Position numbers and translations under genes: made by a program
Source of the DNA: Anaeromyxobacteraceae bacterium
GTDB lineage: Bacteria; Myxococcota; Myxococcia; Myxococcales; Anaeromyxobacteraceae
NCBI GenBank assembly: GCA_047602405.1
Contig: JASGHJ010000002.1
Location: 3,104,001 to 3,168,000 of the forward strand
Direction: 5' to 3'
DNA length: 64,000 nt
Shown: piece by piece, positions 50,221 through 64,000 of the stretch
Layout of the letters: each line of letters begins with the position of its first letter
Numbering within the stretch: the stretch's first letter is position 1
Notes under the pieces: model-generated
Database searches by the model: none
What the model was told of the DNA's origin: nothing
The model's input: only the letters and a program-made list of their open reading frames with translations

Positions 50221-50268
50221 CGGCCCTGGCCTTCCGTGCTCGAGGGAAACACGGAGCGGTCCCTCACT

Positions 50269-50320
50269 CCGTTCGTCCCGAGCGTAGGCCCGCGCAGCGG
50301 GCCGGAGACGAGGGACGCCC
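50269..50320 (+). repeat. REP-like GTAG-hairpin repeat
   Basis: Near-identical to the 47236 copy; between convergent genes. Confidence 0.85.
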
Positions 50321-51055
50321 TACCTGATCCCGAACACGAGCTCCACGCTCGTCGAGACCTCGAGCTCGCCCGGCTCGACCGGCGCGCCCTGGTCCTCCGC
50401 CTTCCCGCGCATCGCCATCGCCATCATCGGCATCGGCACGGGACGCCCGCCCCCGCCCTCGTCGATGGAGAGCACCTCGCCGAGCCCCACGCCCGCGGCG
50501 GTGGCGAGCGCCTCCGCCTTCGCGCGCGCGGCGACGACCGCCTTCTGGAGCGCCTCGCGCTGCGCCGGCCCCGGGTCCTCCCGCTCGAACGACACGCCAT
50601 CCACCGAGTTCCCGCCCACCGCGGTGATGCGGGAGAGGATTCTGCGGGAGGTCGGCGAGCTTTCGCACCGTGATGCGCGCGGTGTTCGTCGCGGTGTAGC
50701 CGGTGACCGCGCCCTGGCGCCCGTTCACCCAGGGTCGCTCGGCGGCGAGCTGGAACTGGCTCGTCTGGATGTCCTTCTCGGCGACGCCCGCCTTCGCGAG
50801 GTCCGCGAGCACCGCGCGCATCCGCGCCTCGGCGTCGGCGGTCGTGGACTTCACGTCCTTGCCGGTGATCTGCACGCCGGCGGTGACGCGGGCGATGTCC
50901 GGCTTCACCTGCACCTTGCCCTCCCCCGTGACGCGGATGGTGCGGAGCGGCTGGGCGGGCTGGGTCATGGTCGGCGGCGGTGGGCGAGGCGTCTGCGCGG
51001 CGGCCGGGCCGGCGCAGGCGGCGAGGGTGAGGAGGACGGCGGCGTGGGTTCGCAT
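50320..51055 (-). CDS. SIMPL (DUF541) domain protein (frameshift at 50638)
   Basis: IRVTGEGKVQVKPD, DIQTS, GYTATN, ARAKAEALA...LGEV. Confidence 0.85.
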
Positions 51056-51196
51056 GGTGGGGTCTCCGGGTGGCTTTCCCCGTGTAACGCAGGACCGGAC
51101 CTGGCGATCTCTCACGGGAGGGGCCCGGGGAACCGCTTCCAGTCCGCCGTTGACCCAGTCCTTTCGCGATGCTACGTACACGCTCCCTGCAGCACC

Positions 51197-51273
<77 letters not shown>

Positions 51274-51277
51274 CATA

Positions 51278-51323
51278 AGCCCCCGTCACTACTAGGGATT
51301 CGTCCCGGGGTGACGGGGGCTTC
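51278..51323 (+). terminator. Hairpin after the tRNA
   Basis: 13-bp perfect stem AAGCCCCCGTCAC/GTGACGGGGGCTT. Confidence 0.6.
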
Positions 51324-51486
51324 TTCGTGCCCATGCGCGGTGGGGTGACGAACGGGGTGACGGCGTCGCCCGCGCGGCGCTGCTCGGCCTCTCAGTGCAC
51401 ACGGTCCTGACGGCCGCCGCGACCATCGGACAACCCGCGATCGACATGGCCCTGTAGTAGCCTGTACCGAACGTGAGGACCTCTCG

Positions 51487-52658
51487 ATGATCCACCATCT
51501 CTGGATGAAGAACTTCGGCCCGTACGAGAGCGCTGACGTGGAGCTCGGCGGGTTCAACGTGATCCTCGGCACGAACGGCTCAGGGAAGTCGCTGCTGTTC
51601 GGGGCGCTCAAGGCGATCGGCCGCATCGCGCGCTTCCCCCTTCGCTCTGCACGGCCCCACCTGGATGGCTACCCGACTCGTACCGGTCACGTGACCTTCG
51701 ACGAGATCGTCCACCGTTGTGACACCTCGCGCACGATGCGCCTCGGCGTGAAGTTCACCACGAAGGAGGTCAGCGGGGAATACGAGGTCGCCGTCGGTCA
51801 CTGGCACAACCCCGGCGGAGTCGTAGTCTCGGAACGCCTCCACGCCAAGAATGCACTGGGGGAACTGAAGATCAGCGCCCACCCCGACGGCAGCCTCGAT
51901 GCTGAGCCAGCATTGTCGATGCCCACCGGGAGGTTCCGTACCCCCCGCGTCGTCTCAATCCCTGGCCTCCTCTTTCGCTCCAGGGATCCCAGGGAGGCAG
52001 CGATCGCGGAGCAGGTGCAGAAGGCTCTCTCTGAGAGGACGACCATCTACAGGTTCGACCCGACGGCACTCAAGGCGCCCGCGGAAGTAGGCAAGGCGCT
52101 TTCACCCACGGGCTACAACTTCGCTACGTACCTCGATCAGAATCCGAAATCAAGCGGGAGGCAAGCAGGAGTTTGACGCGCTGTTGGATCGGTTCAGATC
52201 CGCGTGCCCGCACGTCGAGGACATCTTGCTGCCCTTTGAAGAAGGGCCGTCGGCTAGCACACCCCGGAAGCGACTCGCCTTGGTCATGCCCGGTGAATCG
52301 ACCCCGAATCCCCGGCGACCTGGAAAGCGACGGGACGATCCTCTTGCTCGCGTACGCGTCGCTCCTGCACGGCCACCGCGCTCAGGAGACTCTTTGCATC
52401 GAGGAGCCTGAGAACGGCATTCACCCGAAGGCTGTGGCTCATCAGGTCCGAATGCTGCGCCAGCTCTCACAGCCCTACAATGACCGACCTGGCGCCCAGG
52501 TACTCATCTGTACACACTCCAAGCGCTTCTTCGACGAGGTGAAGGACGACCCCTCGGTTCTGCGCCTCGTTCGGAGGGGTGGTGACGGGCGCTCGTCGGT
52601 CGAGACACCGAGCCCAACTCAGGTCGCTGCTCTGGCCGGTTGGGCTGGGTTGAGTTGA
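51487..52658 (+). CDS. ABC/AAA_21-type ATPase (two apparent frameshifts, at 52140 and 52306)
   Basis: KNFG, GTNGSGKS, ESDGT signature, IEEPENGIHP, ICTHS; removing one A at each GAATC gives a single ORF. Confidence 0.8.
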
Positions 52659-52884: not shown

Positions 52885-53703
52885 ATGTGGAAGAGGACCC
52901 GCCTTCTGATCTGGGGAAAGACTTACCCGGAGTTCTCGAAGCGGTACTACGAAACGGTCTGCACCGGCGCGATCCACGGCGAGACGGGTCGCCTGATCCG
53001 GATCTACCCAATCACGCTCCGGTACCTCGACGAGCACTTCCGCAGCTACCAGTGGATCGAGGCAGAGATCGAGCGCAACACGAGCGACTTCCGCCCGGAG
53101 AGCTACAAGATCAAGCAGAACACGATCACTCTGGGTGACTTCCTTGATCCTCAGAAGAAGGACGGCTGGAAACGGCGAGCAGAGTGGATTCTCCGGCCCG
53201 GCAACGTCTTCACGTCAATGGAGGCGCTGAGAGAGGCGGAGCGAGCCGACCGCACGTCACTAGGCGTGATCAAGCCCAAGAGCATCAAGGGCTTCTACGC
53301 CCGCACGCGCTCCCCTGAGGACAAGGAGGAGTGGGAGCAGAAGCGCCAGCTAGCCATCACCCAGAAGGACCTCTTCGTGGACACGGAGAGCAAGGTCGGC
53401 GAACTGGAGTTCCGCTGGGTGGACTACCGGGTTGAGTTTCGCTGCGATGACCCGGCGTGTTCAACGCTGCACGACTGCTCGATCCTGGATTGGGGAATCT
53501 ACGTCCTCGATCGGAACCAGGAGAGGAAGAAGGGCAGCTACAAACTCGCGGAGGCGGACGTCCTCGCCAAGCTCCAGGAGATCGCGGATCCGCAGAAGAA
53601 GGACATCCACTTCTTCCTCGGCAACACTAAGGACCACTCGAACAACTTCTCGGTGGTGGGTCTCTTCTACCCGCCGATCGAGAGGCAGGGGCAACTGCTC
53701 TAG
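52885..53703 (+). CDS. Conserved hypothetical protein (KTYP...ETVC...IRIYP family)
   Basis: Clean ORF with atypical codon usage; motifs GKTYP, ETVCTG, DFRPES, FFLGN, GLFYPP. Confidence 0.75.
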   Translation: MWKRTRLLIWGKTYPEFSKRYYETVCTGAIHGETGRLIRIYPITLRYLDEHFRSYQWIEAEIERNTSDFRPESYKIKQNTITLGDFLDPQKKDGWKRRAEWILRPGNVFTSMEALREAERADRTSLGVIKPKSIKGFYARTRSPEDKEEWEQKRQLAITQKDLFVDTESKVGELEFRWVDYRVEFRCDDPACSTLHDCSILDWGIYVLDRNQERKKGSYKLAEADVLAKLQEIADPQKKDIHFFLGNTKDHSNNFSVVGLFYPPIERQGQLL

Positions 53704-54128
53704 AGGTTGTGGATCCTCACGCCCGCGAGCCCGGCCGCGCTTTTGGCCAGGATCGACCGATGGCACTTCGCGGGGTTGGCCTCGGCGCACAGGAGCGCAG
53801 AGCGCTCACCCGCGGCAGCGCCGATCACCGCCTCTGTGATCTCGGGGTGCTCGTCGAGGTGGGCACTGTAGAGGGCGAGGCACCGCTCCAGGTGGTCACC
53901 AGCCTCGTGCCGGAACGGATTCCCGGCTGACCTGATGTGGCGGTACGCGATCCCAGCGCGTCCGAGGGCGGCGCTGAGCGGCGTCTTCGAGAAGCCCTTG
54001 CGGCGGGACAGCGGGAGCTCGCGCACGTCGATCACCTGGGTGACGCTTGCTTCCCGGAGCACACGGACGAAGCCCTGGAGCGTCCGCCCTTCGTAGCCGA
54101 TCGTGAAGAGGACGTCTTTCTGGCTCAC
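53700..54128 (-). CDS. DUF488 family protein
   Basis: FTIGYEGR, IDVRELPLSRRKGFSK, LLCAE...CHRS. Confidence 0.88.
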   Translation of the reverse strand: MSQKDVLFTIGYEGRTLQGFVRVLREASVTQVIDVRELPLSRRKGFSKTPLSAALGRAGIAYRHIRSAGNPFRHEAGDHLERCLALYSAHLDEHPEITEAVIGAAAGERSALLCAEANPAKCHRSILAKSAAGLAGVRIHNL

Positions 54129-55017: not shown

Positions 55018-55317
55018 CTACTCGCTGTGCAGCGCGAGCAGCTTGCTCACCGCCGCCGCGTGCCCGGCGTGGTTCGGGTCGTTGAGGGCGGGGTCCTTGC
55101 GAAGCTCCGCGAGGGCGGCCTTCCGGTCGGCCCGGGGCGGGGGCGGGGCCGCGGAGGCGGCGACGAGGTCCGACTCCCTGGCCGTGAGGTTCACAAGGCG
55201 CTCGGCCTCGGCCGCGCGTTCCTCGGGGAGCATCCCCCGGTCCTCCATCAGGCGCTTGCGGGAGGCCGCGATCTCGGCACGGGCGGAGCGGATGGCTTCG
55301 AGCTGCTCGGGGGTCAT
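55018..55317 (-). CDS. Small helical protein with phage-scaffold-like C-terminus
   Basis: SD GGAGGT; ATGA overlap; tail ALAELRKDPALNDPNHAGHAAAVSKLLAL. Confidence 0.6.
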   Translation of the reverse strand: MTPEQLEAIRSARAEIAASRKRLMEDRGMLPEERAAEAERLVNLTARESDLVAASAAPPPPRADRKAALAELRKDPALNDPNHAGHAAAVSKLLALHSE

Positions 55318-55868
55318 GGTGTCACCTCCAGGATGCCTCTGCGGATCTCCTCGCGGATCTCCTGGGCGCGTTTCGTGATCGAAAGGTCCCCGACGTCGCT
55401 CCGCACGCGCTCGAAGTCGAAATCGGACGAGATCGACTCGCCGCCGTGACGGATGGCGAGGAGCAGGGCCGCAGCCTCGCGGAACGCGTCGATCGCCTGA
55501 GGCTTCCGGGCGCGTAGCGCTGCGAGCACGAGGCCCCGCTCCTCCTGGACGATCTCGCCGCTGAGCTGCTCGACCTCCCGGCGGACGTGCCCGAGGGCGT
55601 GGTCGAGCGCGGGCACCTGCTCCCGCAGTTCGGTCTCGTGCTCGAAGGCGCGAGCGAAGGCAGCCTTGGCCGCCTCGGCGCGGGCCTCCGCGTCCGCCGT
55701 GCCCTCCAGGACGGCCGTGACCGCCAGCTCCTTCGAGGCGGCGGAGGTCTCCTGCGTGAGGAGGGCCGCGCGCTCGACCTCTCCGCGCACCCGGTTCAGC
55801 TCCTTCGAGATGCGGTCGTGGACGGCCTGTCGCTCGGCGAGGCGCGTACGCTTCTGTGCGAGTTCCAC
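55314..55868 (-). CDS. Coiled-coil protein
   Basis: SD AAGGAGG; long heptad-like helices. Confidence 0.7.
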   Translation of the reverse strand: MELAQKRTRLAERQAVHDRISKELNRVRGEVERAALLTQETSAASKELAVTAVLEGTADAEARAEAAKAAFARAFEHETELREQVPALDHALGHVRREVEQLSGEIVQEERGLVLAALRARKPQAIDAFREAAALLLAIRHGGESISSDFDFERVRSDVGDLSITKRAQEIREEIRRGILEVTP

Positions 55869-55878
55869 GGGCGCCTCC

Positions 55879-56259
55879 TTACGCGGTGACCGGGTAGTCC
55901 GCCGCGCGGGCGAGGATCGCGGCCTTGCGGCCTTCGAGGGCGGCGTCGGTGAAACTCGCGAGGAACTTGGCCTTGGTCGCGTTCCACGCGGTCGCGGCGT
56001 CCGAGCCGCCCGAGAGCTGCCGCGCGTAGAACGGGGCGATCTCCTCGTTCAGGCGGGAGGTCGAGATCCCGTCCGCCTGCGGCGCCGTCGCGCCCGCAGC
56101 GACGAGGACGCGGAACTTCGCGGAGGCCAGCGCCTCGGGCTGCGAGAACTGCGGGTTCACGCTCGCGAGGGCGGCGGCCCAAGCGGCCTCGGGCGAGTTG
56201 CCGGCGGCGACGGACGCCTTCACTGCCGCCACGAGGTCATCGAACTCCTTGGTCGTCAT
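55879..56259 (-). CDS. Ala-rich hypothetical protein
   Basis: SD AAGGAGG; internal repeat GNSPEAAW / GSDAATAW. Confidence 0.7.
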   Translation of the reverse strand: MTTKEFDDLVAAVKASVAAGNSPEAAWAAALASVNPQFSQPEALASAKFRVLVAAGATAPQADGISTSRLNEEIAPFYARQLSGGSDAATAWNATKAKFLASFTDAALEGRKAAILARAADYPVTA

Positions 56260-56279
56260 CGGGTGTTCCTCCTTGGACC

Positions 56280-56612
56280 TCAGCCTCGTTCGTCGCGTGG
56301 TATCGCTTCAACGGGCGGTGACGATCCCAGAGGGCCCCACCGCTGGCGGATGGTCTGGGGGTGCGGGACCTCCTGCGGGAGGTACCCGAGCGCGAGGAGG
56401 CGCCTCCGGGTTGCCAGAGCAGCCTCCCGGGACGAGAAGCCCGAGGCGACGAGGTCCTGGTAGATGGCCGCGCCCACGCGCCTCCGGGCCTCGCGGGCCA
56501 CCGCCGGGCGCGACTCGACGAGCTTCCGCAGCTCGGCCAGTGCGGCGGGCTCGGGGAGCCTGCCGGCAGCGAGGGCCTCCAGGGCGTCGGCGAGGAGCGC
56601 GGCGTCGGTCAC
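56280..56612 (-). CDS. Hypothetical protein
   Basis: GTGA overlap with the upstream ORF. Confidence 0.5.
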   Translation of the reverse strand: MTDAALLADALEALAAGRLPEPAALAELRKLVESRPAVAREARRRVGAAIYQDLVASGFSSREAALATRRRLLALGYLPQEVPHPQTIRQRWGPLGSSPPVEAIPRDERG

Positions 56613-56845
56613 GTCCCGCTCGCCTCCCGGAGGAGTTGGCGCCCGAGGAGGTCGAGGAGGTCCCGGTGTGCCGCGATCTCCTCCCTGTGGGCAGTAGGCG
56701 CGAGGCGCACCGCGCGCGAGAGGGCTCGGCAGGCGTCCGCCACGGACGACTCGCACGCGAGGACCCGCTGATCGGGCTCGGGCACCTCGCGGCGCTCGAA
56801 GGGGATCGGCCTGGGACGACCGGAGCCGGCGGGGGTGTTCGCCAC
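56609..56845 (-). CDS. Hypothetical protein
   Basis: SD GAGGAGGT before the GTG. Confidence 0.5.
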   Translation of the reverse strand: MANTPAGSGRPRPIPFERREVPEPDQRVLACESSVADACRALSRAVRLAPTAHREEIAAHRDLLDLLGRQLLREASGT

Positions 56846-56849
56846 GTCC

Positions 56850-57434
56850 TCACCTCCTCAGCGACCGACGCACGGCCACCGCGTGCTTGCCGCGCTCCTC
56901 GGACTCAAGCCACGCGTCGAGCCTGCGGCGGTCCTCCTCGGGCGTTGGCGGCCGAGTCGGGCGGAGCACGGGGCCCGGCTCGCGCGCGGCTGCCTCGATC
57001 TGTGGGCGCCACGCGGTGAGCATCTCCGGGGGCACGTCGGGCGCGACCACTGCGGCGACCTCGGGCCAGGGCAGGCCACCCCGGAGGAGCGCCGCCGCGT
57101 GCCGCACGTCGGCATCGCGGAGCCCCTGGCGCCCCACCAGCGGCTCCGGGAGCGGTCGCGAGGCCGGCGGGCCTACCTCGGCCGCTCGCCTCCCGACCTC
57201 CCCCCGGTAGCGCTCCACCGCGTCGGGGTGCACGTTATCGGCGACGAGGTCCTCGCGGATCGCTGACCACGGGGTTCCCGCCCGCAGCGCCCTCGCCGCC
57301 TGGACAACCTCCTCCTCCCTGAGGTCATGGCGCCACGGACGCTTCGAGCGCGGCAGCCCGCGCGGAGGGATCTCGATCGTCGGGGTCGAGGGCTTCGTGT
57401 TCGAGTCTCTGAACTTCTGCCGCGGGTCGGTCAA
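56850..57434 (-). CDS. Hypothetical protein with duplicated HTH-like module
   Basis: TTGA overlap with the terL stop; SD GAGGAG; LREEEVVQAARALRAGTPW / LRDADVRHAAALLRGGLPW. Confidence 0.6.
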   Translation of the reverse strand: MTDPRQKFRDSNTKPSTPTIEIPPRGLPRSKRPWRHDLREEEVVQAARALRAGTPWSAIREDLVADNVHPDAVERYRGEVGRRAAEVGPPASRPLPEPLVGRQGLRDADVRHAAALLRGGLPWPEVAAVVAPDVPPEMLTAWRPQIEAAAREPGPVLRPTRPPTPEEDRRRLDAWLESEERGKHAVAVRRSLRR

Positions 57435-58745
57435 AGCGTGCTCCTCGGGTGGAGGCTGCTCCGCACGCTGAGGACGCGCGGCTCGGCCCACGTGCGGCCG
57501 GTGCTCGGGTCGCGGTAGACGGGCGACATGTCGTGATCGGCTAGGCACAGGGCCGCGTAGCGGATCGAGTCCGCCGCGTGCGAGTGGATGTCGTGGAGCG
57601 GGGGGCCGCGCCCGCCGTGGCGCTCGTCGGTATCGCGGCGGTACATCGCGAGGTGATCAATCCCCTCGGCCGTGTACCCCTCGTCGAACACGCAGTGCGG
57701 GAGGAGCGACGCCGCCGCAGCGATCCCCTCCTCGACGCCGCAGCGGGGCGCGACCTCGACGTGGAAGCCGAGGATCTCCAGGGCTTCGAGCCGGGAGCGG
57801 CCCGAGACGAGATCGCGTACCCGGATGTCGTGGGGCGCGTAGACCGTACGGACCCCAAGAATCGCGGAGGGTGCGGCCCACGTCGGCAAGGCCGGTGCCC
57901 ACCCACTCTCGGAAGAGGAGGATCCGGTGCTCCCCGGCGATGCTCTGCCCGACCCACGCGGAGGTGGCGTCTGCGATCCCGAGGTCGAGACTCGCCCACG
58001 CGTCGGCCTCGTCGATCCAGGGCACCGCGGGCAGGATGCGGCCGGCGGCGCGGAGGGCGGTGATGATCGCCCCGTAGATTGAGCCGGGCGGCGCCGCGGA
58101 GAAGTCGCACTCGAACTCCCGCGCGTACGCGTCGGCCGGCATCGTCGCGCGCGCTGCGGCCAGCTCCCCCGCGGGCAGCACGCCCGTCTCGGAGGCTCGG
58201 AAGAGGAAGTGGCTCCAATCCGGGAGGCCGCGGGTGTCCTGGATGAGCCGGTACAATGGATCGCGTCCCTTGGGCGTGCCGATGAAGATCGCCCAGCCCA
58301 GCCGATCGGCGAGGGCGGGGCGGACCACGCTCGCGAACACGCTGTCCTCCATGAGGGCGTACTCGTCGAGCACCACCCCGTCGAGCCCGACGCCGCGGAG
58401 GCTGTCCGCGCCGTCGAGTGCGCCCGCGAGGAAGACGGCCGAGCCGTTCGGGAACACGACGCGAAGCTCCTGCTCGAACACCTGGACGCCGGGGACCGGC
58501 CGGACGTGGTCCTTGAGGCGCTGCCACGCGACGACCTTGGCCTGCGTACGGGTCGGGCCGACGTAGGCGCAGAGAGCGCCCGCCTTCCGCAGGGCGGTGT
58601 CGGCCAGCTCCGCGATCGCGGCCTCCGTCTTGCCGCCGCGACGGTGGACGACCGCGACCGTGAACCGGCGCCGCTCGCGGTGGACGCGCTCCTGCCAGGG
58701 CCGCGGGACGTAGCTGAGGCGGACCTCACGAGTGAACGGTTTCAT
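57431..58745 (-). CDS. terL: Terminase large subunit (frameshift at 57859)
   Basis: PRPWQ, HRRGGKT (Walker A), LRG, VVLDEY (Walker B), GTPKG, DLGIAD, APHD, SHAADSIRY. Confidence 0.88.
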
Positions 58746-59491
58746 CCGTAGAGGACCTCTTCGAGGGTGAGACTTCCTTCTTCTGAAAGTGCTCGGCCTG
58801 CGATCTCGGCTGCTTGGGCTTCGCGGGGTGACCGCGGGGAATCGACCGGGGTGACATTGACCGCGGCGAGGGCGGGAAGCGGATCACGCGACGGGACCCC
58901 CGTGTTCACCACGAGCACCTGCACGGCGCCGGGGCCGATCACCACCTGCGTGTCCTGGTAGAGGTTCGCGAGCTTGTTGACGAGGTCCTCCGCTCGCAGC
59001 GCGGCGTTGCGATCGCCCTCCTCTTCGGCTTCGCGCCCGAGTCGTTGGATGCGAGCGATCTGGCCCTCACGCGTCACCTGGGCAGCGCGCCGCGCACGCT
59101 CGCGGAGGAGCGCGACAAGCTCGACCACCTCGGGCCGTCTGAGGACCATCCACGGCGCCCCGCCACGAGGGGACAGCCCGGCTGCGCGCGCGGCTGCCGG
59201 CAGCGAGGCTCCGCCCGCGTGCTCCTCCGCGAGCCGCGTCGCCTTGGCCGTGCACCTCGCCCGTGCGTCCGCGATGCGCTCCTCAAGCGCGTCCGCGTCG
59301 AGCTGCTCGACCGGGAGGGTCGTCCCCTCACCTTCCCTCAGCCCACTGCCGGCCGGTGGTGGGGATGGTGGGGTTTCGGGCCCACTCGCCAACCGCTCAC
59401 CTACCTCGACACTCTCATTTCTCTCCGCCACCGTCGTCTCCCTCTCCGCCCGAAATGTTGAAGGTGAATTTCCTTCCGCGTTGGCAACCAC
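58742..59491 (-). CDS. terS: Terminase small subunit-like protein
   Basis: AARAAGLS..VLRRPEV..AALRAEDLVNKLANLY pattern; ATGA-coupled to terL. Confidence 0.7.
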   Translation of the reverse strand: MVANAEGNSPSTFRAERETTVAERNESVEVGERLASGPETPPSPPPAGSGLREGEGTTLPVEQLDADALEERIADARARCTAKATRLAEEHAGGASLPAAARAAGLSPRGGAPWMVLRRPEVVELVALLRERARRAAQVTREGQIARIQRLGREAEEEGDRNAALRAEDLVNKLANLYQDTQVVIGPGAVQVLVVNTGVPSRDPLPALAAVNVTPVDSPRSPREAQAAEIAGRALSEEGSLTLEEVLYG

Positions 59492-59493
59492 CC

Positions 59494-62491
59494 CTAAGAC
59501 TCCACCATCCCCACCACCGGACTCTCCACGTGGTAGAGGGTCCGGCCGCGGACGATTCGGGCGCGGAGCACGAGGTCCAGGTTCGCGAGGGGCTGGTCCA
59601 CGAGAGTACCGAGGAAGTGACCCAACGCGGGCGCGCTGTGCACCCGCTTCCGGTCGGTCGCCTCAATCGCGTCGCGCAGCGCCGCCTCGTCGGTGTCCGA
59701 GGGTGGAAGGTCGATCCCTCCGTTCACTCGCCGGACCACTTCCGTGCATGAGAACTCCCGCGCGGCCGGAACGGCACCGCCCGGATCCACCACCCCGAAC
59801 ACCGCGGCGAGCGCGACGAGAGCCGAGACCTTCGCCTTCTGTTCCGGGCTCGACTCCGCGACCTCGGCCCGCTTATCGAAGATCCCGCTCTCCCCGGCGA
59901 AGGCGAGCGGCCACGTCACGAGTCGGTCCACGTCGCTGCCGAGGCCGAGGCTCGGCCCTTCCTCGCGTGCCCCAGCCGCGAACCACGCCCGCTGGATCGT
60001 GAGGAGCGCGTGGAGGACCTCGACGCGGATGGTCTGCGCATACGCAATCGGATCAGCGTTCCTGAACCTCCGCTGCTCGGGGCACGCCTCCTTCGCGAGG
60101 AGGTCGATCTTCACGAACCGCCGGATCAGGTCCGATGCGACCTCGACCTTGTTCCCCGTGAAGACGAACAGCGAGCACGTGGGCACGTCCACGTCCTGCG
60201 TCAGCCCGAGGATTCGCTGCGTGTAGACCGGCGACGTGATGATGGGCGACAGGACCGGGTTGTCGATCGTCGCGCCATCCGGGACGTTGTCGAAGCAGAT
60301 CATCGTCGGGCTGCGCATCAGCGTCGCGAGGATCTGCTTGCGAGCCTCGCCCTGATCCTCGGGCAACGTCTGCACCGCCATGTCTCGGCCAGTGAGGACG
60401 GTGTGCATCATCCTCGCGAGCGTCGTCTTCCCCGTGCCCTGGACCGTGGCGTTGATCAGGATCGCTGGGCCCTGGCTCGTCGCCTTCCTGGAGACCCCGG
60501 TGAGGAGCGCCGCGATCGCAGCGGCCCCGTCCACCCCGGCGTCCTTGAAGAAGCACCTCCGCGAAGAGCAGCTCGCGGATGCGATGCGCCGCTGCGACCG
60601 CCTCGTCCCTCGTCGGCGCCGGCTTCACCTGCGGGAACCGCCAGCCGTCGAATGACAGGAAGAGGCCCGTCGCGTCGTCGAGGCCCTCGCCTGAGAGGAG
60701 CCGACCGCTCGGAGTGTGAACAGGGTGGAGAACGAGCCCGGTGACGCGCGGCGCGCGCTTGTCCGGGAGGTCCAGCATGAAGGTCGGGAGCTTGTCGAAC
60801 GGAACCTCCATCGGGACCACAGCCCCCTTCTCGCCGCGCCGGTAGAGGCACACCGACTTCTCGATCGCGAGGAGCATCGAGACCTTCGTGTGCGGCACGA
60901 AGAGGACCTGCTTGGGAGGCGGGAGCCGGTCGTCCGGGGACCGGTGGGCGTTGTCCGGGTGCTCGGAGTTCGGGATCTCGTCCTTGGCGACCCGGACGTA
61001 GGCGCGGTCGATCCGGAGGAGTCCGTCCTCGATCAGCGCCGCCTCGACCTGGGGCAGCATCGAGTTGTAGGACATCGGGTTCCACAGGACCGGCGCGCGG
61101 TCCTTCGCGACGAGCGTGAGCCGGTCCTTCGACCTCGCCGCCTTGTAGGACGCCGAGCGCTCCGCAAAGAACACCTTCCAGGCGTTCGTGATCGCCCGCT
61201 TCTTCCCGATGTTCAGCTTCTCGACCACGAAGGTGAGCGCGTCCTCGAGCCCGACGGGATCGAGGTGCGCGTCATAGACGACCTTCGCCCACGCCTCAGT
61301 TGCGAGCGGCTCGTCGCGTTCGTTCGCGTCGAGTGCCAGTTCGACGAGGGCCCGCCTAACCTCCTCCAGCGACACCCCGGAGCCCGTCCGCGAGTAGATG
61401 CGCTGGAAGTAGCGCTCCTCGCCGGCCTTCGCCTTCTCCGCGCCGGCGCCGTGCGGGTACGAGATCAGGAGGTGTCGCGTCTCGCGGTAGCTGAGCCCGC
61501 GCGCCTTGAGCATCGAGCCCAGCGACATGTCGAGGCCGGACCTGGAATCGTCGCCGAGCCCCGTGCCTCGCCCCTGCCACCGCGCCTCCAGGAGCACGTC
61601 CGCCGCCCTGAGAGCGTCGAACCGCTCCGCCAAGGCGAGGCGCTCCCCCTCGTCGAGCGGGGCCGTTTCTTCCGTGAAGCTCTCTTCGCGGGGCGCACGG
61701 GGCGACTCCTCGGGAACAGGCTCGGGGAGGCCGTCCGAGAGCTGCGCGATCGTGTACCGGGCCCCCGCGTCGGCGTGCAGCACCGCCGCGAGACGCGCGA
61801 CCTTCGGGTATCCCTTCGCCATCTTCTTCTTGGTCGGGTGGTTCACCGTCCCGGCGAGGCGGAGTATGCGATCGACGTTGTGGGTCCCTGGGTCCCCGCC
61901 CCACCGCGCAACGAGGCGCCGGTTCAGGTGCTCGACGTCCGCGTGCTCCACAGGCTCCGCGAGCCGCCACAGGGCGGAGATGCCGTTCCCGGAACTCCAC
62001 ACGACCGTGGGTGGCGCCGGGCTCGCGGCCATCTCCGCGGCCACGATCTCGTGAAGGTAGGAGCGAGCTCCCGAGTAGCCGCCCTTCTGCGCCATGAAGG
62101 CGTCGGGGTCGATCTCGACGTGGGCGAACCGCGCCGCGCCGATCTCGGCCTTGGATGGCTTCTTGAAGACGCGCTCCGCGGGCGCGTTCACCGAGAAGTA
62201 GAGCTGCTCGCCCTTTCGGTTGTACGCGCAGGCGATCTCCGCGCCCTTCGCCCGCGCCGCGGAGTCCGACGCATCGATGGTGAAGCCCTTCATCCCGTCC
62301 GGCCCGAGGTGGCAGACGACCACGAGCCCCCCGAGCTGCTCCAGAAAGGCCGCGACGGCAGACTGGTCCGGCGCGACGGGTGGCGGCGTGATTCGCGTCT
62401 TGCTAGGCTCCTGGGAGTTGGTCGCTCTCGATGCTGTCCTGACGCGCTCGCCCTGCCCGGCGGGCGCGTCTGTTTCTTCGAGGCTCGTCAT
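59494..62491 (-). CDS. Primase (RepB-like AEP) fused to a P-loop helicase-like domain (frameshift near 60556)
   Basis: YFSVN, HVEID, SSGNG, RILRLAGTVN; C-terminal QGTGKT, CFDNV, FTGN, DLIRR. Confidence 0.75.
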
Positions 62492-62919
62492 GGGCGGGCC
62501 CTCCTGCGAACGCGGATGCAGCCCGGCGCGATGTTCCGGTCGGTCCGTCTCGCCTCGCGCGGCAGCCCGCCGACGTCGAGCATGTTCACCTCGCGCCGCA
62601 GGCGGTCTCCCCGCAGCCCATGGAAGGCATGTAGCCACTCGCGCACGAGAGCCCGCATTGCCGTGAGGTCCTCGCGGTGCATCAGGACGTCACTCGGGTG
62701 CGTCCACGCCCCCACGGCGCCGTCGATCCACCCGACCAACCGTGACACTGGCGAGGTGTCACGCCGGAGCGAGGCGAAGTTCTCCAGGGGTGGGAGCGTC
62801 AAGGTCAGCCCGAACTGCGCGTCCTCTTCCGCCCACGCTGCTTGCGCGGGAGAGCGCCGTGCGAGGCGCCAACGGCCGAGCAGCGGGCGCGGGTTGATGA
62901 TGCGTTGGCGAGTCGTCAT
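62488..62919 (-). CDS. Hypothetical protein
   Basis: SD-like AGGGGG; ATGA-coupled to the primase. Confidence 0.55.
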   Translation of the reverse strand: MTTRQRIINPRPLLGRWRLARRSPAQAAWAEEDAQFGLTLTLPPLENFASLRRDTSPVSRLVGWIDGAVGAWTHPSDVLMHREDLTAMRALVREWLHAFHGLRGDRLRREVNMLDVGGLPREARRTDRNIAPGCIRVRRRARP

Positions 62920-62928
62920 GGCTGCCCC

Positions 62929-63174
62929 CTACCGAGTGGCGTCGGCGAGCCCGCCGCGAAGGTTGGCAGCCCCGCGGCGCGCGGACTGCGGGCGCGCGAT
63001 CTGGCGGTCTACCCACGCGAGGATTTCTGACTCCAGCCAGGTGCGGCGTTCGGCGACGTAGGACGGCGCCGGGAAGTCCCCCGCTCGGCACCGGCGCCAG
63101 ATCGACACCCTGTGAAGCCCTGTCAGCCTCTCCGCGTCCCGGATCCCGACACGGCGGTCCGTTGCTGGTTTCAT
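62929..63174 (-). CDS. alpA: AlpA-family regulator/excisionase
   Basis: RLTGLHRVSIWR...GDFPAP...RTWLESEILAWV. Confidence 0.85.
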   Translation of the reverse strand: MKPATDRRVGIRDAERLTGLHRVSIWRRCRAGDFPAPSYVAERRTWLESEILAWVDRQIARPQSARRGAANLRGGLADATR

Positions 63175-63448
63175 CGCGCACCCGTTCCACGCCCCGATTG
63201 CTGGATCGGAAGGCCGTGCGGGCTACTCGTGGGGCGCGGTTCAGTTCAGACGCGCAAGCCGCCGGCCATGCTGTGTCATGGTGGGCGCTGCCTGTTTGAC
63301 TGATTGACTGGTTTGGCTGGTTTGCGCTGAGCGATGCCGCCGACTCAGGGGCCGATTGAGGTGGGCCGACCTAACTCGGGCACAGTACGCCCGCCGGGAC
63401 GTCCGACGCAACTACCGGCTGCGAGCGAGTGAAACCGACCGGACTACC

Positions 63449-64000
63449 CTACTTCCGAACCGTGTGCAGGAACGCGACCTTGGCCTGCTCGGGCGTGACG
63501 ATGCGCTCGACGTAGGCCGCCCACCGCGCGAGCGCCTCGCGGCGCTCCTCCAGGTAGTCGCCACGGTCGTACACCCGCGCGATGCGGCCGAGCGAGTGGT
63601 TGAGGCACCTCTCCGCGATGTGCGGCGCCACCCCGAGCGTCTCGCCGAGGTGCGTGCGGACCGTCCTCCGGAGGTCGTGCGGAGTCGGGTGAGGCTCCGC
63701 GAAGGCGAGGAGCGGCTTCTCGCCCTGGAAGAGCTTGCGCATGGCGGCGATCAGCGCCTTGTCGGTGTAGCGCCCGGTCTCGGAGTTCGGGCTCGCCATG
63801 ACGAACGTCGAGCCCTCCGCGTAGTGGCGGAGCTTCTCGAAGAGCGCGGCCACCGCGGGGGTGAGCGGAACCACGAAGGGCTTCGCCCGCCCGCGCATCT
63901 TCGGCTTCATCTTCTGCCGCTCCACCGGGATCGTCCACGTGCCCGCGTCGGTGTCGATCTCGTCCCACGTCGCGCCGAGCAACTCTCCCGGGCGCACGCC
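63449..64000 (-). CDS. int: P4-like tyrosine integrase, C-terminal part (5' end outside the window)
   Basis: RPGE, W.EID, HDLRRT, ERCLNH, VYDRGDYLEERREAL. Confidence 0.92.
   Translation of the reverse strand, partial: GVRPGELLGATWDEIDTDAGTWTIPVERQKMKPKMRGRAKPFVVPLTPAVAALFEKLRHYAEGSTFVMASPNSETGRYTDKALIAAMRKLFQGEKPLLAFAEPHPTPHDLRRTVRTHLGETLGVAPHIAERCLNHSLGRIARVYDRGDYLEERREALARWAAYVERIVTPEQAKVAFLHTVRK

Follow-up and report, generated by a model that had tools for sequence, protein, structure and literature searches.

A candidate phage satellite with its own large terminase and no portal or capsid gene in an Anaeromyxobacteraceae genome

Classical phage-inducible chromosomal islands (PICIs) lack a large terminase (TerL), whereas capsid-forming PICIs (cf-PICIs) combine TerL with a portal and a capsid (PMC10085698; PMC13612085; 10.1101/2022.09.08.507074; here and below, described systems are cited from the available parts of each source). 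EPIPs (PMC12822802), VEIMEs (PMC9618062), PICI-like tycheposons (10.1101/2020.12.28.424599), and phiAH14b (PMC4936722) are likewise small integrative parasites that need helper virions; in the available parts of their descriptions they have a small terminase (TerS), a capsid gene, or no terminase, and none is given a TerL of its own. Here we describe a mobile island in a 64,000-nucleotide stretch (the window; G000:C2:3104001-3168000) of an Anaeromyxobacteraceae bacterium, whose genome has 6.16 Mb and 74% GC. The island carries terL and no match to a portal or capsid gene. It is probably a PICI-like satellite of a podovirus, which would package its own DNA by its own terminase into helper proheads, with a predicted scaffold mimic acting on head assembly.

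The island is complete and bounded by attachment (att) sites at both ends. The initial annotation proposed extending the sequence to find the far att site, and both are now located, attL in a tRNA-Pro gene and attR beyond the integrase (Table 1). The repeats enclose 13,803 bp, starting at window position 51228 and running ~1 kb beyond the last position of the window, and GC content is 0.69 in the element and 0.64 in its cargo, against 0.74 in the genome. Because attR lies only 203 bp beyond the integrase start, no structural gene is concealed past the window, and a hidden portal on the far side of the integrase is ruled out. Further repeats of the tRNA-Pro 3' end are found in 3 of 5 same-genus genomes checked (G001, G015, and G023), which marks this tRNA as an integration hotspot. 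Just outside attR lies ~2.3 kb of lower-GC DNA (L002:2030-4400) with three open reading frames (ORFs; 191, 227, and 177 aa) and zero PADLOC or NCBIfam matches; it is possibly the remnant of an older island at the same tRNA.

Inward from attR, the minus strand reads int, alpA, o143, primase-helicase, a TerS-like ORF, terL, and six small ORFs of 194, 78, 110, 126, 184, and 99 aa, named below by their length (e.g. o99). The initial annotation had described this run, and it is real, with family matches for int, alpA, primase, and terL; the coupling it reported is also present, as 4-nt stop/start overlaps at five junctions. Its terS-terL pair is confirmed for terL (phrog_2, PF03237), in which Walker A, Walker B, motif III, and the nuclease acidic motifs are all present, while terS is tentatively assigned by position and by Atlas features (0.95 to Terminase_2 clusters, residues 75-249), with zero hidden Markov model matches in Pfam, PHROGs, and NCBIfam. 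The TerS-like gene and terL are translationally coupled and directly follow the replicase. Near attL, ~3.5 kb of cargo includes a split ABC ATPase, a PDC-M19A/B-like pair, and further ORFs. This leftward extension with cargo is an addition to the initial annotation, as are attR, two frameshifts, and a scaffold-like C-terminus in o99.

Structural genes are absent from the element. Portal, capsid, tail, HNH, and lysis families match none of the 89 six-frame stop-to-stop ORFs of at least 90 aa across it (PHROGs, E <= 0.01), an HNH packaging nuclease has no match there, and the P4-like psu, delta, sid capsid module has no PHROG or Pfam match. Eighteen portal/capsid-position proteins from comparison loci have no tblastn match in the host genome, and four portal families were not found in it, two of these searches being run without a positive control. 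The sole strong terL match in the host genome is the element's own. The earlier statement that no ORF of the element is a portal, capsid, or tail gene thus holds for these frames and queries, and portal or capsid genes were also looked for, and not found, past the integrase and among the small ORFs, where the initial annotation allowed that they might lie.

How does the island compare with described satellites? Like a classical PICI (SatelliteFinder model, PMC10085698; PMC13612085), it is integrated at a tRNA, falls within 10-15 kb, has the int-alpA-primase order, defense-like accessory cargo, and a putative TerS, and is without portal, tail, or holin; the att-bounded integrase, AlpA regulator, and primase-replicase (frameshifted in the assembly) by which that class is recognized are all there. 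Unlike a classical PICI, it has a TerL, and it shows a scaffold-like ORF where a capsid-like morphogenesis gene was not matched. With cf-PICIs (10.1101/2022.09.08.507074) it shares the int-alpA-primase core, its own TerL with a TerS (here assigned by features and position), and the placement of TerL on a long branch from phage homologs, but it has no capsid, portal, protease, or head-tail connectors of its own, and its TerL is of the phrog_2 podovirus type rather than the HNH-dependent type of cf-PICIs (10.1101/2022.09.08.507074). The element fits neither definition, yet likely functions like a PICI.

The initial annotation did not know this intermediate design as described, and our literature search agrees: it found no description of a TerL-bearing portal-less satellite, most subscription journals and all supplements lying outside its reach. 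The available parts of PMC11389934 and 10.1101/2025.02.15.638363 hold no precedent for the layout, and phiAH14b was rejected as one, as it has no terminase in the available part of its description (PMC4936722). The island is real, complete, and recurrent, and it is a new satellite variant in its architecture, a putative one in its function.

The distal ORF, o99, is predicted to be a scaffold mimic of the CpmB kind. Podovirus scaffolds end in a motif resembling the C-terminus of o99, a likeness that was put to the test. The best phmmer match of o99 among 2,265 called genes is the C-terminus of a 285-aa protein encoded two genes after a portal (E 0.014). A scaffold-tail profile was made from 10 such C-termini, with o99 left out; searched against 51,815 six-frame ORFs of the host, it finds o99 only (E 0.013), with 0 of 2000 shuffles reaching the score. 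The matched proteins belong to phrog_3742, sit between a PF12236 portal gene and a PF19821 capsid gene, and are annotated in cultured podoviruses as "capsid assembly protein" or "putative protease". The leading Atlas assignment of o99 is PF05396 at 0.80, and its C-terminus is modeled as a helix-turn-helix, with no PDB match. A tblastn search of phage records with o99 gave no match, and none of 7,153 frames from the other portal-less elements described below is matched by the profile. Modeling the o99 tail together with a stand-in capsid protein (from L067) gave no answer on a complex (score 0.00). Like CpmB of SaPI1 (PMC6893505), o99 is small and helical with a C-terminus resembling that of a phage scaffold, a likeness at the level of description, and SaPI1, unlike this element, uses the helper TerL (PMC6893505).

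When 363 genomes of the order were searched with an alignment that included o99, three other matches appeared, the best in G025 and weaker ones in G166 and G287. The G025 locus keeps the gene order of the window, with homologs of o126 (47%) and o184 (~40%) followed by a 165-aa ORF that shares a 4-nt overlap with the latter. Both the scaffold-tail profile and a version made without its three closest members recover this ORF (25.9 and 18.6 bits; no higher score in 2000 shuffles), and the C-terminal likeness to scaffolds, weak for o99, is stronger for this G025 ortholog.

Close relatives of several element proteins exist. Five TerL relatives (P0002-P0006) are 62-79% identical to the N-terminal part of the window TerL, the next best reaching at most 51%, and together they and the window copy group in a single long-stemmed clade (SH-aLRT 100; 55-79% mutual identity). 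The Walker A, Walker B, motif III, and nuclease motifs are kept across this clade; 3 of the 5 relatives are full-length (441-442 aa), and P0005 is without its N-terminus. Two primase relatives are 87% and 75% identical, and P0002 and the primase P0122 have shared sources, with a longest contig of 17,119 bp in both, which suggests that they are co-located. A full-length homolog of o194 (P0138, 79%) is accompanied by nine single-domain relatives. A homolog of o184 is 82% identical (P0149), and comparison of its predicted fold brought up generic coiled coils, none of them at E <= 0.001. Where a length is given, the contigs that encode P0002, P0003, P0004, P0121, P0122, P0138, and P0149 span 7.6-17.1 kb. 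The ~95-aa domain of o194 also occurs elsewhere as a stand-alone protein.

No DNA of the close TerL clade was recovered from viral scans (matches of 28-38% only), the genome scan, or the metagenome scan (10 of 64 parts; matches of 32-46% only). Viral scans with the primase P0121 and an o184 alignment gave zero relatives. None of 36 further genomes of the genus contains the C-terminal part of the window primase, and none of 400 others in a phylum sample contains the o194 domain. The nearest cultured TerLs are 33-39% identical and belong mostly to phages of 34-41 kb (Pelagibacter HTVC-type, Venkman, and P26218).

The initial annotation held open that the locus was a one-off deletion and proposed a search for terL loci without portal or capsid. 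Such loci, att-bounded or island-like, recur both within the host family and across distant phyla, which speaks against a single accident. Searching 92 genomes of the host family with phrog_2 turned up 14 terL loci in 11 of them, and G144, added from a separate search, brings the set to 15: 7 with an adjacent portal, 6 without (the window element, G001, G128:C13, G138, G091, and G144), and 2 on contigs too short to tell. Repeats of a tRNA end accompany G001, G128:C13, and G144. The G001 element measures 12.5 kb, with a 48-bp tRNA-Pro repeat, an integrase, and a helicase, and that of G128:C13 14.6 kb, with a 49-bp tRNA-Met repeat. The G138 locus has an integrase 48% identical to that of the window, an alpA-like gene, a primase, a DUF5681 TerS-like gene, terL, and the start of a tape-measure gene.

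Among genome loci with the window's primase family, 3 of 13 carry terL without a portal (L106, L112, and L113). Two of the three are guaA-integrated elements, one of ~15 kb in Dechloromonas sp. ARDL1 (with a 15-bp repeat of the guaA end) and one of ~20 kb in Azonexus hydrophilus (10-bp repeat); they encode internal-virion/ejection-like genes, terS, and terL, with no portal or capsid (L141:780-3023; L142:18352-19998 with L143:2-6027). Dechloromonas sp. ARDL1 has another terL locus elsewhere in its genome. The Ca. Desulfobia pelagia locus (L106) has no integrase on its contig, and the genes after its terL (L144:2258-7067) may be a BREX-like operon. A portal is the rule, by contrast, at terL loci more distant from the window's and taken from metagenomes: of 48 with at least 3 kb downstream, 46 have one within 3 kb. 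Two metagenome terL loci are without a portal (L017:70-5161 and L047:105-1400), one followed by a serine recombinase, the other frameshifted and lying between short repeats amid host genes. Some primase islands hold tape-measure genes (L109:6427-7599, L110:14632-17742, L115:13631-17716, and L180:3-620), L115 with TerS and portal as well.

A single origin for all portal-less TerLs, a group set by gene context whose monophyly was tested after the first tree, is rejected (AU p 4e-90; a quick tree using 43 of 124 rows, long branches flagged). The design looks like a product of convergence, not a trait of a single family.

Table 1. Features of the island and its integration site, in window positions
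Feature	Position	Strand	Basis or remark
tRNA-Pro(GGG), integration target	51197..51271	+	ARAGORN
attL core, 51-bp direct repeat of tRNA 3' end	51228..51278	+	50/51 identical to attR
Cargo ABC/AAA_21 ATPase, HEC-01A/MADS3-like	51487..52658	+	Split over two frames; Pfam, PADLOC; NCBIfam below cut-off
Cargo PDC-M19B-like candidate defense protein	52885..53703	+	phrog_25907; PADLOC E 4e-57
Cargo DUF488/PDC-M19A-like protein	53700..54128	-	Pfam, PADLOC
o99, helical, predicted scaffold mimic	55018..55317	-	Last ~35 aa like podovirus scaffold-position C-termini
o184, long coiled-coil protein	55314..55868	-	AF2 model
o126, conserved hypothetical	55879..56259	-	47% homolog, same order, in G025
o110, hypothetical	56280..56612	-	Start overlaps o78 stop; no family match
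o78, hypothetical	56609..56845	-	No family match in Pfam/PHROGs
o194, two tandem copies of ~95-aa unnamed domain	56850..57434	-	
terL, large terminase	57431..58745	-	phrog_2 E 2.6e-27, PF03237; frameshift ~57860
TerS-like ORF	58742..59491	-	Atlas features and position; true start uncertain; stop overlaps terL start
RepB-type primase with helicase-like domain	59494..62491	-	RepB_primase PF16793, phrog_10537/19930; ~1000 aa in relatives; frameshift ~60550
o143, hypothetical	62488..62919	-	Coupled to primase
alpA regulator/excisionase	62929..63174	-	PF05930 above cut-off
Tyrosine integrase (P4/IntA-like), 442 aa	63449..64000 (3' part)	-	Start 777 bp past window, genome-equivalent 64777
attR	64980-65030 (window-equivalent)		G000:C2:3168980-3169030, beyond window end

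If the island is a satellite of this kind, helper infection would lead AlpA and the integrase to excise it, and the primase-helicase would replicate the excised circle. The element's TerS and TerL would then recognize its own DNA and dock on the helper portal, while the distal cassette (o126, o184, and o99) would act on the assembling head; there o99, in the manner of SaPI CpmB, would compete against the scaffold of the helper and possibly shrink the head. The cargo would defend against other phages. The helper would be a podovirus of HTVC010P/BPP-1-like structural type, and it is predicted to arrive by infection because a resident prophage was not found. Whether the island stands for a third packaging strategy, between PICI (TerS only) and cf-PICI (whole head), is to us an evenly balanced matter; such a strategy would join a complete terminase docking on a foreign podovirus portal to a prohead-reshaping scaffold mimic, and would have arisen several times from different TerL lineages.

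Several points weigh against this satellite reading, here and in the next two paragraphs. Docking of TerL on a portal is normally cognate. No resident helper prophage is evident in the host genome. The o99 match is short and weak, and a profile without its three closest members fails to find it. The scaffold role of the matched family is itself predicted from gene position and annotation, and the related phrog_458 is labeled "protease" in PHROGs. The comparison with P0002-P0006 is one of protein sequences. As for the other portal-less loci, G128:C13 retains a protease-like ORF, the G138 contig ends 1.4 kb past terL, G091 has a serine recombinase and no att repeat was found there, and G144 is 7 kb long and visibly degenerate; the ORFs scanned in such elements were 25 of 55 and 51 of 96 candidates, picked as coding-like. 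The polyphyly of portal-less TerLs also fits repeated capture or decay.

The distal cassette, in addition, is found apart from terL. In G025 it lies inside a cargo-rich island (L217:14777-16539), and within 34 kb of it terL, primase, and integrase are all without a match. In G354 a small cluster (L225:9276-14083) combines an o184 homolog with TerS and a tail gene of podovirus type but has no terL; the cassette is therefore a mobile module, independent of terL. This distribution suits an alternative in which the island is a satellite or defense island whose terminase and scaffold-like proteins mainly sabotage a podovirus—i.e. as a decoy motor on portals and through poisoned heads—while its own DNA moves by the helper TerL or rarely. 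The defense-like cargo is in keeping with it, as is the manipulation of a helper motor by PLE (PMC11417361, available part). We nevertheless consider it unlikely, given that the ATPase and nuclease motifs kept across the TerL clade are needless for a pure decoy and that the coupled TerS-terL pair comes right after the replicase.

The frameshifts bear on a further alternative. Comparison with intact relatives (tblastn) places one break in terL (~57860) and one in the primase (~60550). With a same-genus complete genome as reference, 13 of 119 host orthologs are frameshifted (0.094 per kb), and because this background is high, the breaks in terL and primase are likely assembly errors, a simpler reading than decay. 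The element has three frameshifts (terL, primase, and cargo ATPase) against ~1.2 expected from that background (P ~0.11), an excess that counts on the opposing side. A PICI-like satellite of the ordinary TerS type, into which recombination brought a phage terL that is now a decaying passenger, would account for the broken terL, the several independent TerL origins among portal-less elements, and the degenerate G144 copy. It is nonetheless improbable, in view of the host frameshift rate and of a clade that has diverged to the extent given above on a long stem with intact 441-442 aa frames. A host SIMPL/DUF541 gene (window 50264-51334) is also split over two frames. The assembly contains many indel errors, which bears on other findings in this genome.

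That the island is a podovirus prophage remnant, stripped of portal, capsid, and tail genes by internal deletion, is very improbable: its TerL and scaffold-like tail do point to the same broad phage type, and portal-bearing prophages make up 7 of the 15 host-family terL loci, but attL and attR are each intact, and the core of int, alpA, and primase is of satellite type, with small islands as relatives. The genes after terL, moreover, are 40-82% conserved elsewhere, keep their order in G025, and are no fragments of a portal or capsid gene.

Satellite definitions assume that TerL comes from the helper or stands alongside the satellite's own portal and capsid. Elements of the present layout lie in a gap between the models of SatelliteFinder, and would be classed as defective prophages. 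Since the host family has nearly as many terL elements without a portal as prophages with terL (6 vs 7 of 15 loci), prophage counts based on terL may be inflated. If the element is functional, TerL can work on a non-cognate portal, so that terminase-portal specificity becomes directly testable, and scaffold mimicry would extend from parasites of staphylococcal siphoviruses to parasites of environmental podoviruses.

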